Source: an uncultured SAR86 cluster bacterium
Lineage (GTDB): Bacteria; Pseudomonadota; Gammaproteobacteria; Magnimaribacterales; D2472
Assembly: GCA_902559345.1 (NCBI GenBank)
Contig: CACEHH010000005.1
Span: forward strand, 578-64,577
Reading direction: 5' to 3'
Length of the DNA stretch: 64,000 nt
Below, piece after piece: positions 1,847-64,000 of the stretch. Every line of letters begins with the position of its first letter. Within the stretch, counting starts at the first letter, position 1. A program made the position numbers and the translations under genes. Under the pieces are notes generated by a model. The model did not search any database and was not told the origin of the DNA. It saw nothing but the letters and a program-made list of their open reading frames with translations.

Positions 1847-3769
1847 GTGTCTCAAGAGATATATAGTCCTAAATCTGCTAACCCTCATATAAAAGATATT
1901 GAGGAATATCAAAAGCTTCATAAAGAATCTATAGAAAGTCCTAAAGAATTCTTTCAAAAGTTAGCAAATGAAAATATATCTTGGTTTAAGGATTTTAAAG
2001 AGGTTCATAATGATGATTTTCCGAACACTAAATGGTTCAGTGGTGGTCAAACCAATGTAAGCTTCAATTGTATAGATAGGCATTTAGAGAGTGATGCAAA
2101 TAAAACTGCATTAATATGGGAGGGGGATGATCCATCTTATTCTAAGAGCCTGACCTATCAAGAACTCCATGATGAAGTCTGTAAATTCTCAAATGTTCTT
2201 AAAAATCTTGGTGTAAAAAAAGGTTCAAGAGTTTGTATTTATATGCCTATGATAGTTGAGGCAGCCTTTGCAATGCTTGCGTGTACAAGGATTGGCGCTA
2301 TTCATTCGGTTGTTTTTGGTGGTTTTTCACCGGAGTCATTAAAAGATAGAATTCTTGATGCTGACTGTAAAATTGTAATTACGGCTGATGAAGGTTTAAG
2401 AGGCGGAAAAAAAGTTCCGTTAAAACTTAATGTTGATGAAGCTCTTAAAGGATGTCCAAATGTAAAATCCACTTTAGTTATAAAGAGAACTAGTGAAGAT
2501 ATTCCATGGGATGAAAATCGCGATATTTGGTATGAGGAATTATCTAAAGATGTTGAAACTACCTGTGATCCTGAGCCAATGGATTCTGAAGATCCCCTTT
2601 TTATACTTTATACATCTGGTTCAACTGGGAAGCCCAAAGGTGTATTGCATTCTACTGCTGGATATTTGTTAGGTGCTCATATTAGTTTTAAATATTTGTT
2701 TGGCATAAGGCCAGAAGATAAATATTGGTGTACTGCTGATGTTGGATGGATAACTGGTCATACATATATTTTGTATGGTCCTCTTTCAAATGGGGCTACA
2801 ACTTTAATGTTTGAAGGTGTTCCAACCTACCCTTCTGCATCAAGGTGTTGGGAGATATGTGATAAACACGAAATTAATATCTTTTACACTGCTCCAACTG
2901 CTATCAGAGCCCTTATGGCTCAAGGCGATGAGCCTGTTTTAAAAACTAAAAGAAATACTTTAAGGGTATTAGGCACTGTTGGTGAACCAATAAACCCAGA
3001 GGCGTGGGATTGGTACTACAGTGTTGTAGGTGAATCTAGATGCGATATTATTGATACATGGTGGCAAACTGAAACTGGCTCAGTTCTTATATCTCCAATT
3101 GCAGGCGTCACACCCACAAAACCGGGATCAGCTACTCTTCCTTTTTTTGGAGTAAAACCAGCGCTATATGATGAAAATGGTAAAACATTAGAAGGACCAA
3201 ATTCAGGAAACTTGGTAATGGAACAATCTTGGCCTAGCCAAATTAGAAGTGTTTATGGGGATCATCAAAGAATGATAGATACATACTTTAGTATGTATAA
3301 AGATATCTACTTTACTGGAGATGGAGCTAGAAGAGACGAAGATGGATATTACTGGATTACTGGAAGAGTGGATGATGTTTTAAATGTCTCAGGTCATAGA
3401 CTTGGTACCGCAGAGATTGAAAGCGCTCTTGTGCTTCATCCAAAAGTAGCAGAAGCTGCTGTGGTTGGATTTGACCATCCAATTAAAGGTCAAGGCATTT
3501 ATGCTTTTGTTACTTTAATGATTGGAGAGTCATTTAGTGACGAATTAAATAATGAATTAAAACAATTCGTAGCTAAAGAAATAGGTGCAATCGCAAGGCC
3601 TGACCTAATTCAAAATGCACCTGGTCTTCCAAAAACAAGATCTGGAAAAATAATGAGAAGAATTTTAAGAAAAATTTCCGAAGGCGATCTATCAAATCTT
3701 GGCGATACCACTACACTTGCAGATCCATCAGTTGTAGATTCTCTAATTAGCAATAAAATAAGCTTATGA
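1847..3769 (+). CDS. acs: Acetyl-CoA synthetase (AMP-forming)
   Basis: [14 protein letters not shown]-binding motif, [15 protein letters not shown] and [11 protein letters not shown]; 640 aa; GTG start. Confidence 0.96.
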
Positions 3770-4101
3770 AAAAAAATAGTTTATTAGTGATTGCCACACT
3801 TACTTTAGTTAGTTGTAATACAAATCAAAATTATGATAAGTCAATGCTACCTGACGCTGATCCTAAAGTTCTAAGTGAAGTGAATTCCAAAGTATTAATT
3901 TCTTGTATGCAAATGCCTGTGCCTCGACCACCTGTTCCTATAAATCCAAGTCATAAAGTGCCAACTAGCGAGGTATATGATCAGAATGATTGTGTTGAGA
4001 ACAAATTGTCTGATAATGAGCGTAAAAAAATTCTTAATGAGAGAAAAGAAAAAGAAAAATTTAATCTTGTAATTAATTTAGAAGATCAAGAAGAAGAGTA
4101 A
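3766..4101 (+). CDS. Hypothetical lipoprotein, proline-rich
   Basis: Signal peptide with lipobox ([17 protein letters not shown]); ATGA overlap with the acs stop. Confidence 0.65.
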
Positions 4102-47408: not shown

Positions 47409-48305
47409 ATGGAAAATTCTATTTTTGCTCTTAATGATGTTAAGGAATATCTAATATTTGTTTCTCAAGTAAAAAATCTTTCGGAGAATACTACAAAGTC
47501 ATACGAACGTGATCTTAAAAAGCTTTGCACTTTTCTAGATAATATCCAAGTAACAAATTACTCTCAAATTAACGCTGATATTTGCTCAGCATGGATTGGT
47601 GATTTGTATTCTCAAAATAATAATCCAAGAAGTATCCAAAGACATCTTTCTTCTGCCAAAGGGTTTTTTCGATTCCTTAAAAAAAATAATCTAATTACAT
47701 CTTCTCCATTCGAATTAGTTACAGCTCCAAAATCGCCTAGTAATTTACCGGATGTTTTATCTCCAGAGGATGTAGAGCAGCTGCTAAATTTTAAGCCAAC
47801 AAGCTTAATTGAAATTAGAGATATGGCTATTGTTGAAGTTATGTATTCATCTGGCTTAAGGGTTACCGAAACTGTCAATATTAATATTGCAGATTTTGAA
47901 GAAGAGATGAGCTTTCTTAGAGTGCTAGGAAAAGGATCTAAAACTAGGCTTGTCCCTATGGGAAGGTTTGCCGTATCTGCAATAAATAATTGGATAGTTG
48001 AACGTAAGAAAATAGCTACAAATACTGATGCCCTATTTCTAAATTCAAAAGGAACAAGGTTAACTGTAAGAAGTGTTCAGTTAAGACTCAAAAAAATGGC
48101 TCTTAAACAAGGTCTTCCACCAATTCATCCTCATATGCTTAGACACAGCTTTGCAACTCATATGCTTGAATCAAGCGGTGATCTAAGAACAATTCAAGAG
48201 CTCCTAGGTCACAGCTCATTATCAACAACTCAAATTTATACTAAATTAGACTACCAACACTTAGCAAAAATTTATGACAAGTCACATCCAAGAGCAAAAA
48301 AATGA
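47409..48305 (+). CDS. xerC: Tyrosine recombinase XerC
   Basis: [27 protein letters not shown] and [22 protein letters not shown]; dapF-yigA-xerC-yigB order. Confidence 0.94.
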
Positions 48306-49006
48306 TTAAACAAATTAAAATGATAACTTTTGACCTAGATGACACTCTATGGGATAACGTTCCTACAATTACAAGAGCTGAAATTGATACCAGGCAGTGG
48401 ATTGAGGAAAGAGTTGGCAAGGTTAGCTGGGGTGATTTTAATGACTTTATTAACTTAAGGGATGATCTTATAAAAGAAGACGCTAGCATTGAATGGGATA
48501 TAAGCAAGCTTAGAAAAGAGATTTTTAGAATAAAGCTTGATCATATCAAACCCTCGAGCTTAAGAGATAAAATCGTAGATGAGGCGTTTTCTGTATTTAT
48601 GAATAAAAGACATGAAATTTTATTATTTGATGGTGTAGCTGATGCTCTTAAGGCCCTGTCTGAAAAATATATACTAGGAGTTCTAACTAATGGTAATGCT
48701 GATGTGTACAAATTTAATATTGGTAAATATTTTAGATTTGCGATTAGCTCTCTTGAAGCAAAAGCTAGCAAGCCGAATAGATCTCATTTTGATTTGGCAG
48801 TTAAGCAGGTAGACGGAGTTACTTTTAACGAAATTCTTCATATTGGAGATCATCAGATTAATGATATTTTATTTGCCCACAAGTTAGGCATAGACACTTT
48901 ATGGTTTAATAATAATAATGCTACATGGGATCAAGATTTTGAGAAGCCTGATGAATTTAATTCATGGGAACTACTTACACAGATTATAGAAAACAAATAT
49001 GAGTGA
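48302..49006 (+). CDS. HAD-superfamily hydrolase (YigB-like)
   Basis: [15 protein letters not shown] and HIGDHQIND. Confidence 0.9.
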
Positions 49007-49229
49007 TAAAGATTTAACAGAAGCGCTTAAGCGAATTATTGAAAAAGAGTTAAGCAAATTTAGCAAGCTTTTGCCAAAAGATGTCATTTCTGATGTTGAG
49101 AAGAAAATATCTCCTCAAGTTGAAAGCATCATTGAACAAAGTGGATATGTTAAAAAATCAAAATATAAAAACCTTGAGAAAATCATAGATGATCTTGAAA
49201 AAAGAATTGATATCCTAGAAAAAGATTAA
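48999..49229 (+). CDS. Probable UbiK/YqiC (BMFP)-like accessory protein
   Basis: 76-aa helical protein with GYVKKSKY and a C-terminal coiled coil (LEKRIDILEK); size and position fit, but the sequence is divergent. Confidence 0.55.
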   Translation: MSDKDLTEALKRIIEKELSKFSKLLPKDVISDVEKKISPQVESIIEQSGYVKKSKYKNLEKIIDDLEKRIDILEKD

Positions 49230-49813
49230 AGTTGATTCAAATATGTATCTATTCTTTCTGCATTCATCACGAATGTTGATTTTAGTTTTTGCGAGGCATC
49301 CTTTACTTCGTTGATGTTTACAGCCTCGCCTACCTGGATAACTCCTATCATTGCCATCATCACATGAGGATCACATTGATAAACATAAACTCCTTCTGTG
49401 TCTAAGGTAACGCTTATATCCATATTCATTTGTCCATTCCACTCCTTTGCGCCAGCTGGAATCATTCCTTCAATAGTGGCTGAATTGTGAGATGCGTCTA
49501 CAGCCTTAAAATGGATGGTATCTCCTTTAGAAACTTTTAATACAGCTGGTTCAAATATCATCTGTCCACCATCACCACTATTAAGCATTTTCACAATATG
49601 TTCAGACCCTTCAGAAAGTTCAACCTTTTTTACTATTGCTGGGGCTTGCGAAGCAACTGGGCTTGTAGCAGAAGAACTGCCGCAATCTTGGCCTTCTAGA
49701 CAAACCTTTACAGGTACTAATAATCTATTTTTTACAGCTTCATCATATTTTTTTCCGTTAAAAAGCAGTAAAAAACATAAGGGTAGTAGTAATAAAAATA
49801 TTTTATTTTTCAT
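49226..49813 (-). CDS. Pseudoazurin-type blue copper protein with cytochrome c5-like N-terminal extension
   Basis: HIVKMLN..MIFEPA..GDT, type-1 Cu ligands SHNS and CDPHVMMAM; N-terminal hydrophobic helix and RLLVPVKVCLEGQDCG; ATG at 49813 after AGG-poor overlap with the dsbA end. Confidence 0.85.
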   Translation of the reverse strand: MKNKIFLLLLPLCFLLLFNGKKYDEAVKNRLLVPVKVCLEGQDCGSSSATSPVASQAPAIVKKVELSEGSEHIVKMLNSGDGGQMIFEPAVLKVSKGDTIHFKAVDASHNSATIEGMIPAGAKEWNGQMNMDISVTLDTEGVYVYQCDPHVMMAMIGVIQVGEAVNINEVKDASQKLKSTFVMNAERIDTYLNQL

Positions 49814-49820
49814 ATTTTTT

Positions 49821-50444
49821 TTAGGAATTAGGTCTTTGGAGCTCAATTACGTAATCTAATATATCAAGCATTTCTTTATATGATCTTTTTGTTTCAATAA
49901 TATATTTACCATCAACAACAAGCATAGGAGTGGCATCTATCTTAAGTTGTTTTGCATGTTTTGCATCACGATTAATTTTTTGCTTAATTGTAAACGAATT
50001 TAAATACTGTTCTGTTATCTCTGGCGCAACCCCAAAATTTTTAAGAAAATCTTGGATTCTTTTTGTCGTCTGCAAGAAATTTCCTTCTTTATGGATTGTT
50101 ACAAAAACCGCTGAATGTGTTGATGAATCCAATTTAAGAGCATCGATTGTGTAATAAAGAGATGCGTGGAGTCTATGAATATCACTCCATGGAACTGGCA
50201 TTTTTGTGAATTTAACATCAGCCCCTTGTTTAGATGCCCAATCATTAATAGCAGGTTCGAAAGAGTAACAACCCCCACAGCCATACCAAAAAGATTCAGT
50301 TACTTCGACTATTCCGTCTTTTTTAACAGGAAGAGGATTGTCAACAATCCTATAATCTAATCCCGGTCGAAAATCAGCACTTACAGATATAGTAAAAACG
50401 GCCAAAAATAGTATTACAAATGTATTTTTTAAATAATTTTTCAT
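49821..50444 (-). CDS. dsbA: Thiol:disulfide interchange protein DsbA
   Basis: Signal peptide, EVTESFWYGCGGCYSFEP and cis-Pro loop ATPMLVVDGKY; downstream of cytochrome c4. Confidence 0.88.
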   Translation of the reverse strand: MKNYLKNTFVILFLAVFTISVSADFRPGLDYRIVDNPLPVKKDGIVEVTESFWYGCGGCYSFEPAINDWASKQGADVKFTKMPVPWSDIHRLHASLYYTIDALKLDSSTHSAVFVTIHKEGNFLQTTKRIQDFLKNFGVAPEITEQYLNSFTIKQKINRDAKHAKQLKIDATPMLVVDGKYIIETKRSYKEMLDILDYVIELQRPNS

Positions 50445-51106
50445 TGATATAACCCATGCATATAATTTGCTAGCGCGTCGATCTCATTATCAGTCAGATT
50501 TTCTGCGATTGACTGCATAACTAGTGAAGATTCTCCAGCATTCCTTTCTTTTGATCTATAAGCTTTTAGCGAAGATGTTAAATAACCAATCTGTTGGCCA
50601 GCTATAGCAGGATACCCTGCCAAATTATTTCCTTGTCCATAAACCCCATGACAAGATGTGCATGCTGGTATTTGTTCCTTCATATTCCCAAACCTGTATA
50701 ACTGTGTTCCAAGTGAAAGCAATTCTTCATCATTTCTTGCTTGACCTACAGTTGCATTATAACTCGAATAGAAAGCGGCTATATCTAATAAATCCTTATC
50801 GCTTAATGTTTTCAAATACGGAATTACTGCCATCATTAAAACATTATTTCTTTCTTCATCTCTAAAATGCTTTAGCTGTTCAAGTAGGTATTTCTGATTC
50901 TGTCCAGCGAGTTTAGGCCAATCTGTACTAATACTGTTTCCATCAACACCATGGCAAGCAACACATGATTCAACTAATTGCGAGCCCTTATCTGCATCAC
51001 CAGAAATAAAAATTTCTGGCATTTGCATTTCTTTAGATTTATCATCAGCAGCGCTCAAGCCTATTGAAAAGCTGAAGAAAGCTATGAGAATTAATGAATG
51101 CTTCAT
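50441..51106 (-). CDS. Diheme cytochrome c4
   Basis: Two CxxCH motifs (CVACH, CTSCH), PKLAGQ and a signal peptide; divergent from engB. Confidence 0.94.
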   Translation of the reverse strand: MKHSLILIAFFSFSIGLSAADDKSKEMQMPEIFISGDADKGSQLVESCVACHGVDGNSISTDWPKLAGQNQKYLLEQLKHFRDEERNNVLMMAVIPYLKTLSDKDLLDIAAFYSSYNATVGQARNDEELLSLGTQLYRFGNMKEQIPACTSCHGVYGQGNNLAGYPAIAGQQIGYLTSSLKAYRSKERNAGESSLVMQSIAENLTDNEIDALANYMHGLYQ

Positions 51107-60215: not shown

Positions 60216-61567
60216 AATTATTTTTGAAGAAAACATTAATCATTCTATTTTCTTTATTGATAGTTTCATGCGGAGGTGGTTCATCTTCTGCGTCTGATAT
60301 GGACAACGATCCAATTGCCCCGCCCCAAACATATCCTACTCACCCACTTGTTTGGGATGTTGTAACACCAGAATCTGTTGGGATGAGTTCTTCAGGTTTA
60401 GAACAGGCCTTTGATTACGTATTTCAAGATGGCTCTTTTACACAAGCTGCCGTAGTAATAAAAGATGGCAAATTGGTTTATGAAAGATATAGGGGTATGA
60501 CCGACAATGAGGCAAATATACTTGCTTCAACATTAAGCGAGAATGGTGATTTTTATAAAAGTCTCTATGCGCAACGTAATCAAAATAGTTATATTAGTTC
60601 TTGGTCAACAGCAAAATCATTTGCCAGCTTTTTAATTGGGATTGCGGTTGAATCTGGTGCAATTAACTCGATTGAAGATTCTGCATCAAACTATATTACA
60701 GAATGGTCATCTGATGAAAGATCATCAATTTCCATTAAAGATTTATTAGATATGCGCTCAGGCTTGCCGCCAGCCTGCTTCAATTTTGTAACAGGTGAAA
60801 TAGGAGAATGTCTTAATGCTAGTGATTCAAGTAGTGGAGGTAATATTGTTTATGCCGATGACCAGCTCACAAAATGTATTGATAGAGATCTTGCCGCCGA
60901 GGGTGTAACTCATCCATGGTTTGAGAACGGATTAACTGTTTATTCAAGAGGTGCATTTCAGTATTCTAATTGTGACACTATGGTGCTTGGAGAAATAATC
61001 TTCAGAGCTACAGGACAAGATATTCAAACCTATGCAGAATATAATTTATTTTCAAAAATTGGTATTGATGCCTCTTGGTGGAGAGACTTTACAAGCTCAG
61101 GACAATCTAACGGAAATTATTTAGCCTATTGTTGTTTAGACAGCACAGCCAGAGATTTTGCCAAATTTGGGCATATGCTTTTACTTAATGGGATTTGGGA
61201 AGGAAGCAATCAGAGATATAGCTCTTACGTTGACCTCATAAAAAACTTAAATTCATACGGTTTACAATTTTGGACCATATGTGCAAAAGCACAATCAAAC
61301 TCAAATTGTGATGATTGGATAATTTCAACTATTGGTTTTGATGGACAATACATAATGATAGATTTTCAGAGAAATATAGTGGTGGTTAGATCAAGTTTAT
61401 ACACTCCAATACAAAATCTTTCACAAGATAGAAAAATGAAACTAAACCCAAATAACTTAACTCAGTCTAATTGGATTGCAACCGTGCCTAATGGGTTAGG
61501 TTCATCAGCAACCCCAAATATAAGTGTAAGTGCTTTTTATGAGCTGGTGACAAATTCAATAAACTAA
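60212..61567 (+). CDS. Serine hydrolase of the beta-lactamase class C-like family, lipoprotein
   Basis: Lipobox LIVSC, SWSTAKS (SxxK), LLDMRSGL, FQYSN, TARDFAKFG and GFDGQY. Confidence 0.85.
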   Translation: MKLFLKKTLIILFSLLIVSCGGGSSSASDMDNDPIAPPQTYPTHPLVWDVVTPESVGMSSSGLEQAFDYVFQDGSFTQAAVVIKDGKLVYERYRGMTDNEANILASTLSENGDFYKSLYAQRNQNSYISSWSTAKSFASFLIGIAVESGAINSIEDSASNYITEWSSDERSSISIKDLLDMRSGLPPACFNFVTGEIGECLNASDSSSGGNIVYADDQLTKCIDRDLAAEGVTHPWFENGLTVYSRGAFQYSNCDTMVLGEIIFRATGQDIQTYAEYNLFSKIGIDASWWRDFTSSGQSNGNYLAYCCLDSTARDFAKFGHMLLLNGIWEGSNQRYSSYVDLIKNLNSYGLQFWTICAKAQSNSNCDDWIISTIGFDGQYIMIDFQRNIVVVRSSLYTPIQNLSQDRKMKLNPNNLTQSNWIATVPNGLGSSATPNISVSAFYELVTNSIN

Positions 61568-62199
61568 TTACTAGTTACTGATTGGTAAGTTAGAGATAGT
61601 CTCGATAGATCAAATGGAGGCCTGAACACTCCAGCAAACTCACCATTGGGATTTAATAAAATAATATTATTAACATGATTATCTAAATGGGAGTGATCCA
61701 TAGAGTCGTTACTTGGCATAACGTTGTTAACAGATAATTGTGTAGCTAGATTTAAGAGCATTGGTCTAGTATTAGAAACTCCGATAAAGTCTTTATCAAA
61801 ACCCTTAGCATATTTATCTATATCTTCAGGAGTATCTCTTTCGGGATCAATAGAAACCAGCACCCATTGTTTGTCTTCCAAAGGATACTCCTTTTCTCTA
61901 AGAATCTTAATTAACCTCGACATCTGATACATGGTTGTAGGGCATTCATCAGGGCATCTAGTAAATCCAAAATACATTAATGTCCATTTCTCGTTTAAGT
62001 CAGATTTATCAAATTCTCTTCCGCTTGCAGAGTAAAAACTAAAATCAGAAATCTGTTTTGGATTCTCAAATAAAAAGAGGCCATTTACTAAAAGCTCGTT
62101 TGTACTAAGGGTTCTTGGCGTTGTTAATTTGTTTATAAAAAGTGTCAAAACAACAAATATAAATAAAGCTATTAGAAGTATATTTCTCTTTATGGTCAT
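61564..62199 (-). CDS. SCO1/SenC copper chaperone
   Basis: FGFTRCPDECP (CxxxC), SIDPERD and a conserved His; next to ctaB and ctaA. Confidence 0.93.
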   Translation of the reverse strand: MTIKRNILLIALFIFVVLTLFINKLTTPRTLSTNELLVNGLFLFENPKQISDFSFYSASGREFDKSDLNEKWTLMYFGFTRCPDECPTTMYQMSRLIKILREKEYPLEDKQWVLVSIDPERDTPEDIDKYAKGFDKDFIGVSNTRPMLLNLATQLSVNNVMPSNDSMDHSHLDNHVNNIILLNPNGEFAGVFRPPFDLSRLSLTYQSVTSN

Positions 62200-63065
62200 T
62201 AGTTTGAAATTAAAAAGTGGTCTATTAGCAAAGCTAAAAATATTAAAAATATATAATAAATAGAGAATTGAAAGGTCTTCATGGCATCCTCATCGTCTTT
62301 GCTGAAATAAAGATTAACAGAGTAATATAAAAATACAGTGCTCAATACTAATGCAGAAAAAAGATATATTTCTCCAGACATTAATACCACATAAGGCAAT
62401 ACGCTTACTATAAATAAAATGACTGTGTATAAGACGATTTGTAATTTTGTAAAGATGACTCCATGAGTTACAGGCAGCATAGGTATCGACTCTTTGGCAT
62501 ATTCATCTTTTCTATAAATTGCTAGTGCCCAAAAATGCGGAGGGGTCCAAACAAAAATTATCAATACAAGCAAGAGAGCGTATGGGTCTATAGTGTTTGT
62601 TACAGATGACCAGCCAAGTAGAGGTGGCGCAGCGCCTGCCAAACCGCCAATTACAATATTTTGTGGTGTAGCTCTTTTTAAGTAAATTGTATAAATAAAA
62701 GCATAGCCCACAAGAGATGCTAGCGTTAAGATCATTGTAAGGGTGTTAACAAAAAAATATAAAATTAAGGAGCCTGATATTCCAAGAGCCAAGGCAAACA
62801 TAGATGCGTGGGTTGGTGAGAGCTCTCCTTGAGGCAGAGGTCTTTGATCTGTTCTTGTCATCGATGCATCAGTATTTCTATCTATTACCTGATTAACTGC
62901 TGCTGCAGATGCTGCACAAAAAGCTATCCCCAATAAAGCTACAAATAAGTATCTAAAAGACTGAACTTGTTGTTCCGCTAACAACATTCCAACAAAAGCA
63001 CATATAAGCATCATATAGACCACATTTGGTTTACATAGCTGATAGTAACTTTTTAAAAGTGTCAT
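62199..63065 (-). CDS. ctaB: Protoheme IX farnesyltransferase (heme o synthase)
   Basis: LCKPNVV, NQVIDRNTDASMTRTDQRPLPQG, WTPPHFWALA and DEYAKESIPMLPV. Confidence 0.95.
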   Translation of the reverse strand: MTLLKSYYQLCKPNVVYMMLICAFVGMLLAEQQVQSFRYLFVALLGIAFCAASAAAVNQVIDRNTDASMTRTDQRPLPQGELSPTHASMFALALGISGSLILYFFVNTLTMILTLASLVGYAFIYTIYLKRATPQNIVIGGLAGAAPPLLGWSSVTNTIDPYALLLVLIIFVWTPPHFWALAIYRKDEYAKESIPMLPVTHGVIFTKLQIVLYTVILFIVSVLPYVVLMSGEIYLFSALVLSTVFLYYSVNLYFSKDDEDAMKTFQFSIYYIFLIFLALLIDHFLISN

Positions 63066-64000
63066 TTTTTCCAAGCTAGATAGTTAATTGTAAAAGTCGC
63101 AAGAAGCAACAATGCTGCGACTAGGTTATGAGCTATTGCAACATACAAAGGTAATACATATACAACATTAATTATCCCAAGAGTTATTTGTGTTAATAAT
63201 AAAATGCCCAAAGTTGAAGCTAATGGGGCTGCATCAGAAAACCAGAGCCTAGACATTAGTATTAAAAATATTAACGTTAGTAATAAAGCGGAGACTCTGT
63301 GTGAATAATGAATGGCCACTCTCGCTGGATTATCCAACAAGCCATACAAATAATTGGGCCCAACTTCTTGATTGAGGTTAAATCCATTTTTAAAGTCCAT
63401 CTCAGGCATATAGCTTCCTTGGCAAGTAGGAAAATCTGCGCATGCTAGAGAGGCATAGTTAGTGCTAGTCCAAACCCCAAGAAAAATTTGAAAAATTAAT
63501 ACGCCAAATGCTATCGAGGCTATAACTTTTAAATTTGAAATATTAATTTGATTAAATATCTCAAAATTACGAGACTTTAAATAGATAAAATACAAAAGCA
63601 TAAGGGTTGCAAACCCGCCAAAAAGATGTGTTGTAACAATTATAGGTAATAGTTTAAGGCTAACTGTTAAATAACCAAATAAGCCTTGGCAACATATAAG
63701 TATCAAAAGAAAAATAGTCCATCTTTGGATGGATTTATTGTTTGTTTTTTCAGACGAGAGAAAAACTAGCAGAATTGCTATAAAACCTAGTGCAGCAGCA
63801 AAAAGCCTATGAACTTGTTCTGGTATTGCTTTGTTAATGTCATATGGATATGTTGGGAATCTGCTTTCTGCTATGGCTATCTCTACCTCATCATTCGGCC
63901 AAAAAACAAACCCATAGCAACCAGGCCAGTCTGGGCATCCCAAGCCTGCATCAACCAATCGAGTCCATGCGCCCAAGGCAATAACTACAAATGCCATACA
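63062..64000 (-). CDS. ctaA: Heme A synthase (COX15/CtaA), 5' end beyond the window edge
   Basis: LGAWTRLVDAGLGCPDWPGCYG, EQVHR, ACADFPTC, IHYSHR and AHN. Confidence 0.93.
   Translation of the reverse strand, partial: CMAFVVIALGAWTRLVDAGLGCPDWPGCYGFVFWPNDEVEIAIAESRFPTYPYDINKAIPEQVHRLFAAALGFIAILLVFLSSEKTNNKSIQRWTIFLLILICCQGLFGYLTVSLKLLPIIVTTHLFGGFATLMLLYFIYLKSRNFEIFNQINISNLKVIASIAFGVLIFQIFLGVWTSTNYASLACADFPTCQGSYMPEMDFKNGFNLNQEVGPNYLYGLLDNPARVAIHYSHRVSALLLTLIFLILMSRLWFSDAAPLASTLGILLLTQITLGIINVVYVLPLYVAIAHNLVAALLLLATFTINYLAWKK

Follow-up and report, generated by a model that had tools for sequence, protein, structure and literature searches.

Gene structure and domain architecture

SAR86 is among the most abundant bacterial groups in the sea. 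The window considered here, meaning the whole stretch of DNA that was analysed, comprises 64,000 nucleotides of contig CACEHH010000005.1 from the genome of an uncultured SAR86 bacterium (assembly GCA_902559345.1, called G000 below; 924 kb in 34 contigs, 32% G+C). At positions 49226 to 49813 of its minus strand lies a single open reading frame (ORF) of 195 codons, with its ATG at 49813 and its stop codon at 49226-49228, whose product carries a type-1 copper domain of the pseudoazurin family behind an N-terminal segment that resembles the docking tail of cytochrome c5. We refer to this gene and its product as the chimera. Its parts are as follows, with residue numbers counted from the ATG.

49226..49813, minus strand: the whole gene, c5-tail/pseudoazurin chimera; 195 residues plus stop, 1576 homologues at E ≤ 1e-3
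49754..49813, minus strand: residues 1-20, hydrophobic N-terminus, signal peptide or uncleaved signal anchor, from the sequence
49679..49753, minus strand: residues 21-45, putative c5-type docking tail with the cysteine pair C38/C44, from conservation, c5 alignment and a complex model
49628..49678, minus strand: residues 46-62, variable linker rich in Ser, Ala and Pro, from alignments A1 and A2; confidence (predicted local distance difference test, pLDDT) below 50 at residues 45-58
49229..49627, minus strand: residues 63-195, pseudoazurin head, from TIGR02375, PF00127, AlphaFold2 (AF2) and Foldseek
49487..49489, minus strand: His109, first predicted type-1 copper ligand, invariant in alignment A2
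49349..49375, minus strand: predicted ligand loop C147-D-P-H150-V-M-M-A-M155, conserved in alignments A1 and A2

The preliminary description of this DNA had claimed a hydrophobic N-terminus, a tail, an Ala/Ser/Pro linker and a full pseudoazurin domain with no haem motif, and all of these are present in the 195-residue ORF. No CXXCH occurs anywhere in the translation, and its four cysteines are C13, C38, C44 and C147. Residues 21-45 read KKYDEAVKNRLLVPVKVCLEGQDCG. The tail and linker amount to approximately 42 extra residues between the hydrophobic N-terminus and the cupredoxin domain, unlike the usual form of a soluble pseudoazurin. The homologue search, in a collection of 5.8 billion proteins, returned relatives of which the best 120 of 1576 are all at least 73% identical to the chimera and, where named, are called pseudoazurin in public databases. 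A longer reading of 206 residues, from a TTG at 49846, would overlap dsbA; of the best 120 homologues, 108 are 195 residues long.

The hydrophobic stretch spans residues 5-19, and by eye no A-x-A cleavage motif follows it in the window's clade, while the leaders of chimeras in other SAR86 families end in VSA, IFA or LGA. In the AF2 model residues 5-31 are drawn, at low confidence, as one helix. The N-terminus may stay uncleaved in the window's clade.

The pseudoazurin head

Residues 76-194 score 133 bits against TIGR02375, above the curated equivalog cut-off of 109.85, and PF00127 matches with an E value of 7e-17. The type-1 ligand set is complete (H109 and C147-x2-H150-x4-M155); H109 is invariant in alignment A2 and the other three ligands are at least 90% conserved there, and the head is predicted to bind copper. 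The AF2 model, built from a 21-row alignment, has a pLDDT of 88-97 across residues 61-195 and shows the cupredoxin strands together with C-terminal helices at 167-178 and 187-194. A Foldseek search of the PDB with this model returned pseudoazurins as all of its top 27 matches (1zia: TM score 0.90, 43% identity).

The source genome encodes a second pseudoazurin at an unrelated locus (C6; L053:1393-1833, minus strand). This is an ordinary soluble protein of 146 residues (TIGR02375, 132.8 bits), and it has the usual pseudoazurin form without the tail, which argues that the tail of the chimera is not a routine pseudoazurin leader. In a tree of heads made by a quick method (36 rows, 125 columns), the chimera heads of the window's own family group with that of G301, from another family (f234), and with those of three named metagenome-assembled genomes (SH-aLRT support 88), and the plain SAR86 paralogues stand separately from them (87). 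Resolution is poor along the backbone and for the third family, and the number of head origins, one or several, is not drawn from this tree.

The equivalog score, ligand set and fold are common to the chimera and to soluble pseudoazurins such as those of Achromobacter cycloclastes (1ZIA) and Paracoccus pantotrophus (4BWU). The chimera differs in its c5-derived N-terminal extension of approximately 60 residues and in occupying the locus of c5 in genomes that, where checked, have no nirK and no second CuA domain. Among metagenome representatives, P0242, P0244, P0251 and P0328 are 685 to 2938 residues long with 3 to 10 pseudoazurin-like stretches each, and are tandem cupredoxin arrays.

The N-terminal tail and cytochrome c5

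In an alignment of 13 family members the tail (F18 to G45) is nearly invariant and the linker is variable; the tail is no accident of sequence. Residues 18-45 are the most conserved part of the protein outside the copper site, and they are kept through the three head types described below. Similarity of this segment to the N-terminus of cytochrome c5, as the preliminary description had proposed, was borne out through c5 proteins from sister genomes. The window protein and the c5 of G340, a genome of the same family, are identical at 25 of 58 N-terminal residues (43%) in an ungapped alignment with an E value of 2e-16. For the chimera of G348 against the same c5 the figures are 30 of 46 residues and 5e-21, and for the chimera of G353 against the c5 of its congener G405 the E value is 5e-14, with similarity extending through the linker. 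The SAR86 c5 proteins in turn align end to end with the c5 chain of Pseudomonas aeruginosa (8smr_L), without gaps and with the tail included, at E values of 3e-29 and 4e-22. The window tail therefore aligns with the P. aeruginosa tail by transitivity, from the window protein to the c5 of G340 and from there to 8smr_L. The crystal sequence of Azotobacter vinelandii c5 (1cc5) starts only after the linker.

Tails of this kind are common on c5 proteins of the class. A search for the c5-type haem domain was positive in 211 of 301 genomes, three genomes flagged as unpublished being counted in. Among 30 loci, 18 of the 20 small c5-type ORFs, which had been selected on their haem domain only, carry a tail of the form [AI]xxR[IL]xP[VI]GxV after the leader. 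When 271 other pseudoazurin-type proteins were searched with a hidden Markov model (HMM) built from 18 diverse gammaproteobacterial c5 tails, 12 matched it at their N-termini with E values below 0.01 (lowest 1.6e-10). A 30-residue tail query against 300 gammaproteobacterial genomes gave only E values of 0.07-0.9, and these matches included three monohaem c5 N-termini and one distant chimera. The separate searches with the two ends of the protein that had been suggested gave pseudoazurins for the C-terminal part and c5 tails of close relatives for the N-terminal part; the distant c5-tail HMMs did not bear out the second result (see below). Overall, homology of the N-terminal segment to the c5 N-terminus is strongly supported by the alignments with sister proteins.

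Several other proteins bear on the range of such architectures. P0291, a metagenome representative of 355 residues, combines in one chain a hydrophobic helix (by eye), a short c5-type tail, a PF13442 c5 haem domain and a PF00127 pseudoazurin domain, and so has both kinds of head on a single tether. In P0259, P0266, P0267 and P0360 a pseudoazurin follows an N-terminal helix and a c5-type tail lacking cysteines. Copper heads on c5 tails therefore occur in other architectures too. In many Gammaproteobacteria the c5-type haem domain is also found at the C-terminus of frames of approximately 510-700 residues that share a conserved upstream region (L027, L032, L033, L035, L036, L043 and L045-L048).

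Gene order and replacement of the head in place

The chimera is the last gene of an apparent operon of the form c4-dsbA-X, where X is the slot that it occupies, and its neighbourhood is conserved in relatives.

49821..50444, minus strand: dsbA (PF01323), directly upstream of the chimera with a gap of 7 nt
50441..51106, minus strand: dihaem cytochrome c4 (PF00034 twice, two CXXCH motifs), first gene of the apparent operon
48302..49006, plus strand: HAD hydrolase (PF00702), the conserved downstream flank, found also in G040, G340, G353 and others
61564-62199, minus strand: SCO1/SenC, approximately 12 kb from the chimera
62199-63074, minus strand: ctaB, oxidase assembly
63062-63997, minus strand: ctaA, oxidase assembly

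The c4 and dsbA genes, which share the chimera's strand, overlap by 2 nt. These coordinates confirm the context given earlier, with c4 and dsbA in the same apparent operon and sco-ctaB-ctaA some 12 kb away. In the window the slot reads dapF-DUF484-xerC-HAD / chimera / dsbA-c4 / engB...polA. In G040, a 97% complete genome of the same order, it reads lysA-dapF-xerC-HAD / c5 / dsbA-c4 / engB-polA, the c5 being a monohaem protein of 147 residues, and in G340 the same slot holds a c5 of 136 residues.

The point of exchange could be located at the DNA level by comparing G340, which has the c5, with its congener G426, which has the copper head. Their DNA is collinear across c4 and dsbA and for 86 nt into gene X, with 75% identity; collinearity then breaks, and it resumes in the HAD flank. 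Because the break falls within gene X and collinearity returns in the flank, the head was exchanged inside the gene. The proposal that the c5 haem domain was swapped for a cupredoxin is thus upheld by the shared slot, the shared tail and the DNA break, and replacement of the haem head in place by a pseudoazurin, with the N-terminus, tail and linker of the gene kept, is strongly supported on these comparative grounds.

Two further features of the neighbourhood were noted. A gene for DsbB (PF02600; 55453-55938, plus strand) lies 5 kb from dsbA, so that both halves of a disulfide system flank the c4-dsbA-X operon, and the tail cysteine pair C38/C44 is a likely substrate of the DsbA/DsbB system. 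On the plus strand at 48999-49229, a Lys/Glu-rich ORF of 76 residues with no Pfam family converges on the chimera and overlaps its stop codon by 4 nt; it is not found in the equivalent gap of G040 and may not be a gene.

The chimera is present at 95-99% identity on contigs from the metatranscriptomic libraries of three studies, and one of these contigs, of 1200 nt, spans 49129-50330, that is, the whole chimera and most of dsbA. The read layout of the RNA libraries left uncovered stretches in X2, X4 and X5 and had two odd joints in X1 (minimum likeness 90, sides of 20-31 letters).

Distribution across the order

The survey covered 201 genomes of the order, in four families and 22 genera, with matches classed by the part of the query to which they aligned. 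Its genome counts are given without a statistical test, relatives not being independent, and the chimera count is a lower bound, with 60 weaker matches beyond those listed. The chimera was found in at least 99 of the 201 genomes and a full-length c5 in 77, and among the matches listed no genome had both. A tail-less c5 was found in 24 genomes, all of them chimera carriers, and 25 had neither the chimera nor a full c5 among the matches listed. Five c5-bearing genomes of genus g2 for which further matches lay outside the list were checked for the chimera and held a plain pseudoazurin only.

In the four loci examined, the tail-less c5 comes with a separate leader and is the next gene downstream of the chimera, starting within approximately 45 nt of the chimera's stop codon and in one case overlapping it. 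The arrangement has the look of an ancestral c5 that was split when a pseudoazurin head was inserted into it.

L081:3522-3836: tail-less c5
L082:3682-4035: tail-less c5
L083:3622-3939: tail-less c5
L084:3528-3875: tail-less c5

Thirteen of the 25 genomes with neither form belong to genera g273 and g272. In all five of these that were checked, the N-terminal 45-63 residues of the window protein match a frame of 134-159 residues, and in the two loci examined this frame lies in the slot of the chimera and carries, behind the same tail, a monohaem cytochrome c domain of another type. This third head matches PF00034, has weak SoxX/c550-like NCBIfam matches and was missed by both c5 queries. It is present in five named records including the single-cell genome SCGC AAA076-P13, and AAA076-P13 is listed elsewhere as a genus of the SAR86 cluster (PMC9771814); AAA168-P09 is also among the carriers of the third head.

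L098:3327-3731 (G376): gene with the third head
L099:3059-3481 (G304): gene with the third head
L108-L111 and L113: further genes with the third head

Among the matches listed, head type varies within seven genera.

g277: 7 chimera, 7 c5
g284: 14 chimera, 8 c5
g283: 9 chimera, 7 c5
g288: 2 chimera, 4 c5
g289: 2 chimera, 1 c5
g275: 2 chimera, 3 c5
g273: 2 chimera, third head in 4 others checked

In the window's own genus the chimera was found in 18 of 19 genomes and in G000. Queries with the c5 haem domain found nothing in G000 or in any of the 19 genomes. Among the matches listed, no genome with the fusion had a full-length c5, in this genus or across the order, in agreement with the check that had been proposed. 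The fusion does not stand alone, its pseudoazurin being one of three interchangeable heads on the same tail. The mutual exclusion of copper head and full-length c5 shows that the two are functionally equivalent; it does not show the selective agent.

Predicted docking on cytochrome c4

The closest characterised counterpart is the bc1-c4-c5-cbb3 supercomplex of P. aeruginosa (8SMR/8SNH; Di Trani et al. 2023, PMC10556555), in which a 16-residue N-terminal tail of c5 binds c4 and c1. The linker and haem head of c5 are described there as mobile, with density for the head over c4 or beside CcoP, and c5 as the carrier that takes electrons off the second haem of c4 and brings them to the oxidase (PMC10556555).

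The same contact was modelled for the window's proteins, using residues 21-221 of its own c4 (8-row alignment) and residues 20-66 of the chimera. The complex scored 0.74 (0.72, 0.76 and 0.74 in the individual runs), and the best of three controls scored 0.00. Among solved complexes 58 of 80 attain the score mark, against 2 of 110 among mismatched pairs, counts that hold only roughly here because self-built alignments were used. Contacts are at least 95% the same from run to run, and the partner has a pLDDT of at least 48. The model places tail residues 35-42 and 44-45 against c4 residues 120-125, 130, 134, 138, 155-156, 215 and 218-221, several of which are invariant in alignment A3. Since a complex of this kind has already been solved (8SMR/8SNH), the pass is a measure of likeness and not independent proof. 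With that qualification, the model suggests that the tail would dock on the neighbouring c4 in this organism.

Compared with P. aeruginosa c5, the chimera has the same plan of N-terminal tail, linker and a head that would be mobile, its tail is homologous through the SAR86 c5 proteins, and in SAR86 the gene neighbourhood with c4 and dsbA is the same. It differs in that its head is a type-1 copper cupredoxin and not a class-I haem c, in the degenerate PVG core of its tail and in an N-terminus that may stay uncleaved. The oxidase differs as well, being A-type (caa3-like) in SAR86 and cbb3 in the solved supercomplex. The segment had been called a c5-type anchor; its descent from c5 stands, and it is better called a docking tail for c4 and c1 than a mere membrane anchor.

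Respiratory chain and candidate acceptors

G000 encodes a bc1 operon (Rieske protein, cytochrome b and c1) and a CoxB with a fused cytochrome c domain, adjoining CoxA. One COX1 was found per genome in the three genomes checked, and one COX2/CuA domain (PF00116) per genome in all five checked. The PF18764 profile for the NosZ propeller matched no control genome and was uninformative, and PF00116 was used in its place. As there is one CuA domain per genome, a NosZ-type CuA domain is lacking in these five, and as there is one haem-copper oxidase per genome, NorB and cbb3 are lacking in the three. A search for nirK found it in none of the three genomes checked. The expectation that the fusion would occur without a nirK or nosZ partner agrees with these results.

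Characterised pseudoazurins donate electrons to nitrite reductase, N2O reductase and cytochrome c peroxidase. Elsewhere in G000 (C18; L118:1723-2754 and 2760-4013, minus strand), a dihaem cytochrome of the SO2930 family (TIGR03806) is encoded beside a NosD-like parallel beta-helix protein (TIGR03805), and this conserved pair is a possible alternative redox partner.

A probable tethered copper shuttle and its alternatives

We consider it probable that the chimera is a c5 gene in which a pseudoazurin head sits on the kept tail, and that it works as a tethered copper shuttle, with bc1-c4 as donor and the caa3 oxidase as acceptor. By homology with the P. aeruginosa supercomplex, residues 21-45 would clamp the protein onto c4 and onto the c1 of bc1, and the flexible linker would let the copper head swing. 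The head would then take an electron from the second haem of c4 and hand it to the cytochrome c domain of CoxB, in the sole oxidase, which is A-type (caa3-type). This direction of flow and these partners are read by analogy with the solved complex. The history may have begun with an ancestral full-length c5, because the tailed form is widespread in the class; a pseudoazurin head would have been inserted into it, splitting the gene into a chimera and a tail-less c5, and the tail-less c5 would then have been lost, as in the window's genus. Iron sparing, with an advantage in metal economy, is a plausible, putative motive for the swap.

A number of points weigh against the copper shuttle or against parts of the argument for it. 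The HMM of 18 c5 tails misses the window protein in its own genome (11,186 six-frame ORFs; E > 100), and when a tail HMM of the chimera's own clade was iterated against a decoy database, distant c5 tails came in at E values of 0.2-1.8, not above the best decoy (unbiased set). As these distant profile searches are weak, tail homology rests on close relatives and transitivity. In the window protein the PVG core of the canonical tail is degenerate (VPVK), and over the first 60 residues the AF2 pLDDT is only 43-64, too low to describe a fold. The RNA-library contigs show presence in RNA libraries and cannot prove transcription, and G000 is only 71.7% complete. The plain soluble pseudoazurin in the same genome indicates that copper carriers here may serve another acceptor. 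The acceptor side of the scheme is extrapolated, because the solved complex feeds cbb3 via CcoP whereas SAR86 has a caa3-type oxidase.

Three other explanations were weighed. There is a substantial chance, if a lesser one than even, that the head replacement is real and has nothing to do with iron, reflecting neutral turnover of cassettes by recombination or selection on redox potential, haem-lyase load or copper availability. The third type of head on this tail likewise contains haem, so head swapping does occur without a change of metal. One haem is saved per molecule, and c1, c4 and the cytochrome c domain of CoxB still need haem c; moreover, seven polymorphic genera are what frequent recombination would be expected to give. 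This explanation leaves the swap itself untouched and concerns its cause, and no result of the analysis speaks against it. It appears rather unlikely that the N-terminal segment no longer docks and serves only as a signal anchor and spacer, the protein being a membrane-tethered pseudoazurin that diffuses in two dimensions like cytochrome c_y or c552. The degenerate K-P-V-G core in the window's clade, the lack by eye of an obvious signal-peptidase site and the long AF2 helix over residues 5-31 would fit such a protein, but the conservation of residues 18-45 through three head types is harder to reconcile with it, and the complex model puts the Cys-loop strand on conserved surfaces of c4, though the pass may stem from likeness to 8SMR.

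The remaining explanation, that the tethered pseudoazurin serves another periplasmic acceptor and that the tail only holds it near its electron source, we regard as improbable. The acceptor could be an enzyme resembling a peroxidase, or else the dihaem cytochrome of the SO2930 family together with the beta-helix protein, and the known partners of characterised pseudoazurins, the occurrence of the SO2930-family gene next to that of the NosD-like protein in G000 and the second, soluble pseudoazurin there would be in keeping with it. Against it stand the absence of nirK from the three genomes checked, the single CuA domain in each of five and the single haem-copper oxidase in each of three, which leave no NosZ-type CuA, NorB or cbb3 as acceptor in those genomes, and the position of the chimera, which sits exactly at the slot held in relatives by c5, the known shuttle from c4 to the oxidase, and in the survey excludes a full-length c5. 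The copper shuttle from bc1-c4 to caa3 remains the account that we prefer. A bolder extension of it, which we put forward tentatively and with some doubt, is that the tail is a universal plug for a bc1-c4 socket, and that SAR86 populations hold interchangeable heads (c5 haem, a second haem type and copper) at one locus, exchanged by recombination inside the gene, with copper favoured where iron is scarce. If so, allele frequencies at this single locus would report on the iron and copper economy of heterotrophic bacterioplankton.

Parallels and significance

The alternation of plastocyanin and cytochrome c6 in cyanobacteria and algae is the classic case in which copper and haem carriers are interchangeable between a bc-type complex and its acceptor, and it is classically tied to metal supply. 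In those organisms each carrier has a gene of its own and regulation within a cell switches between them, whereas the exchange in SAR86 is genetic, taking place inside one gene with the docking tail kept and differing between species or strains. Tethering also has precedents. Cytochrome c_y of Rhodobacter is a small redox head on an N-terminal anchor and flexible linker (PMC7876108), and the lipid-modified azurin (Laz) of Neisseria demonstrates that a cupredoxin can be tethered (PMC10452240). Both resemble the chimera in that an N-terminal anchor and a linker keep the redox head close to membrane complexes; they are anchored, however, by a transmembrane helix or a lipid without homology to the c5 tail, and neither is described as the product of a head swap at a cytochrome locus. 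The c5 mechanism of tail docking and swinging, tethered cupredoxins and the alternation of copper and haem carriers are therefore already known. No description of a cupredoxin head on a c5 tail at the c5 locus, or of a head polymorphism there, was found in the literature searched, in which subscription journals were mostly outside coverage.

The supercomplex structure showed c5 as a tail-docked swinging arm, and the locus described here shows that the arm is modular, its head having been exchanged, in one case for a copper protein. It thus offers a natural experiment on what a swinging head must be and what it need not be. To our knowledge, copper-for-iron substitution has so far been documented mainly in phototrophs and ammonia-oxidising archaea, and with the chimera the respiratory chain of a heterotroph that is abundant and uncultured offers a concrete candidate. 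As a single, easily typed locus that is polymorphic within genera, it can be scored in ocean metagenomes against measurements of iron and copper. The head swap recurs among SAR86 relatives, and it may tune their respiration to the supply of metals.

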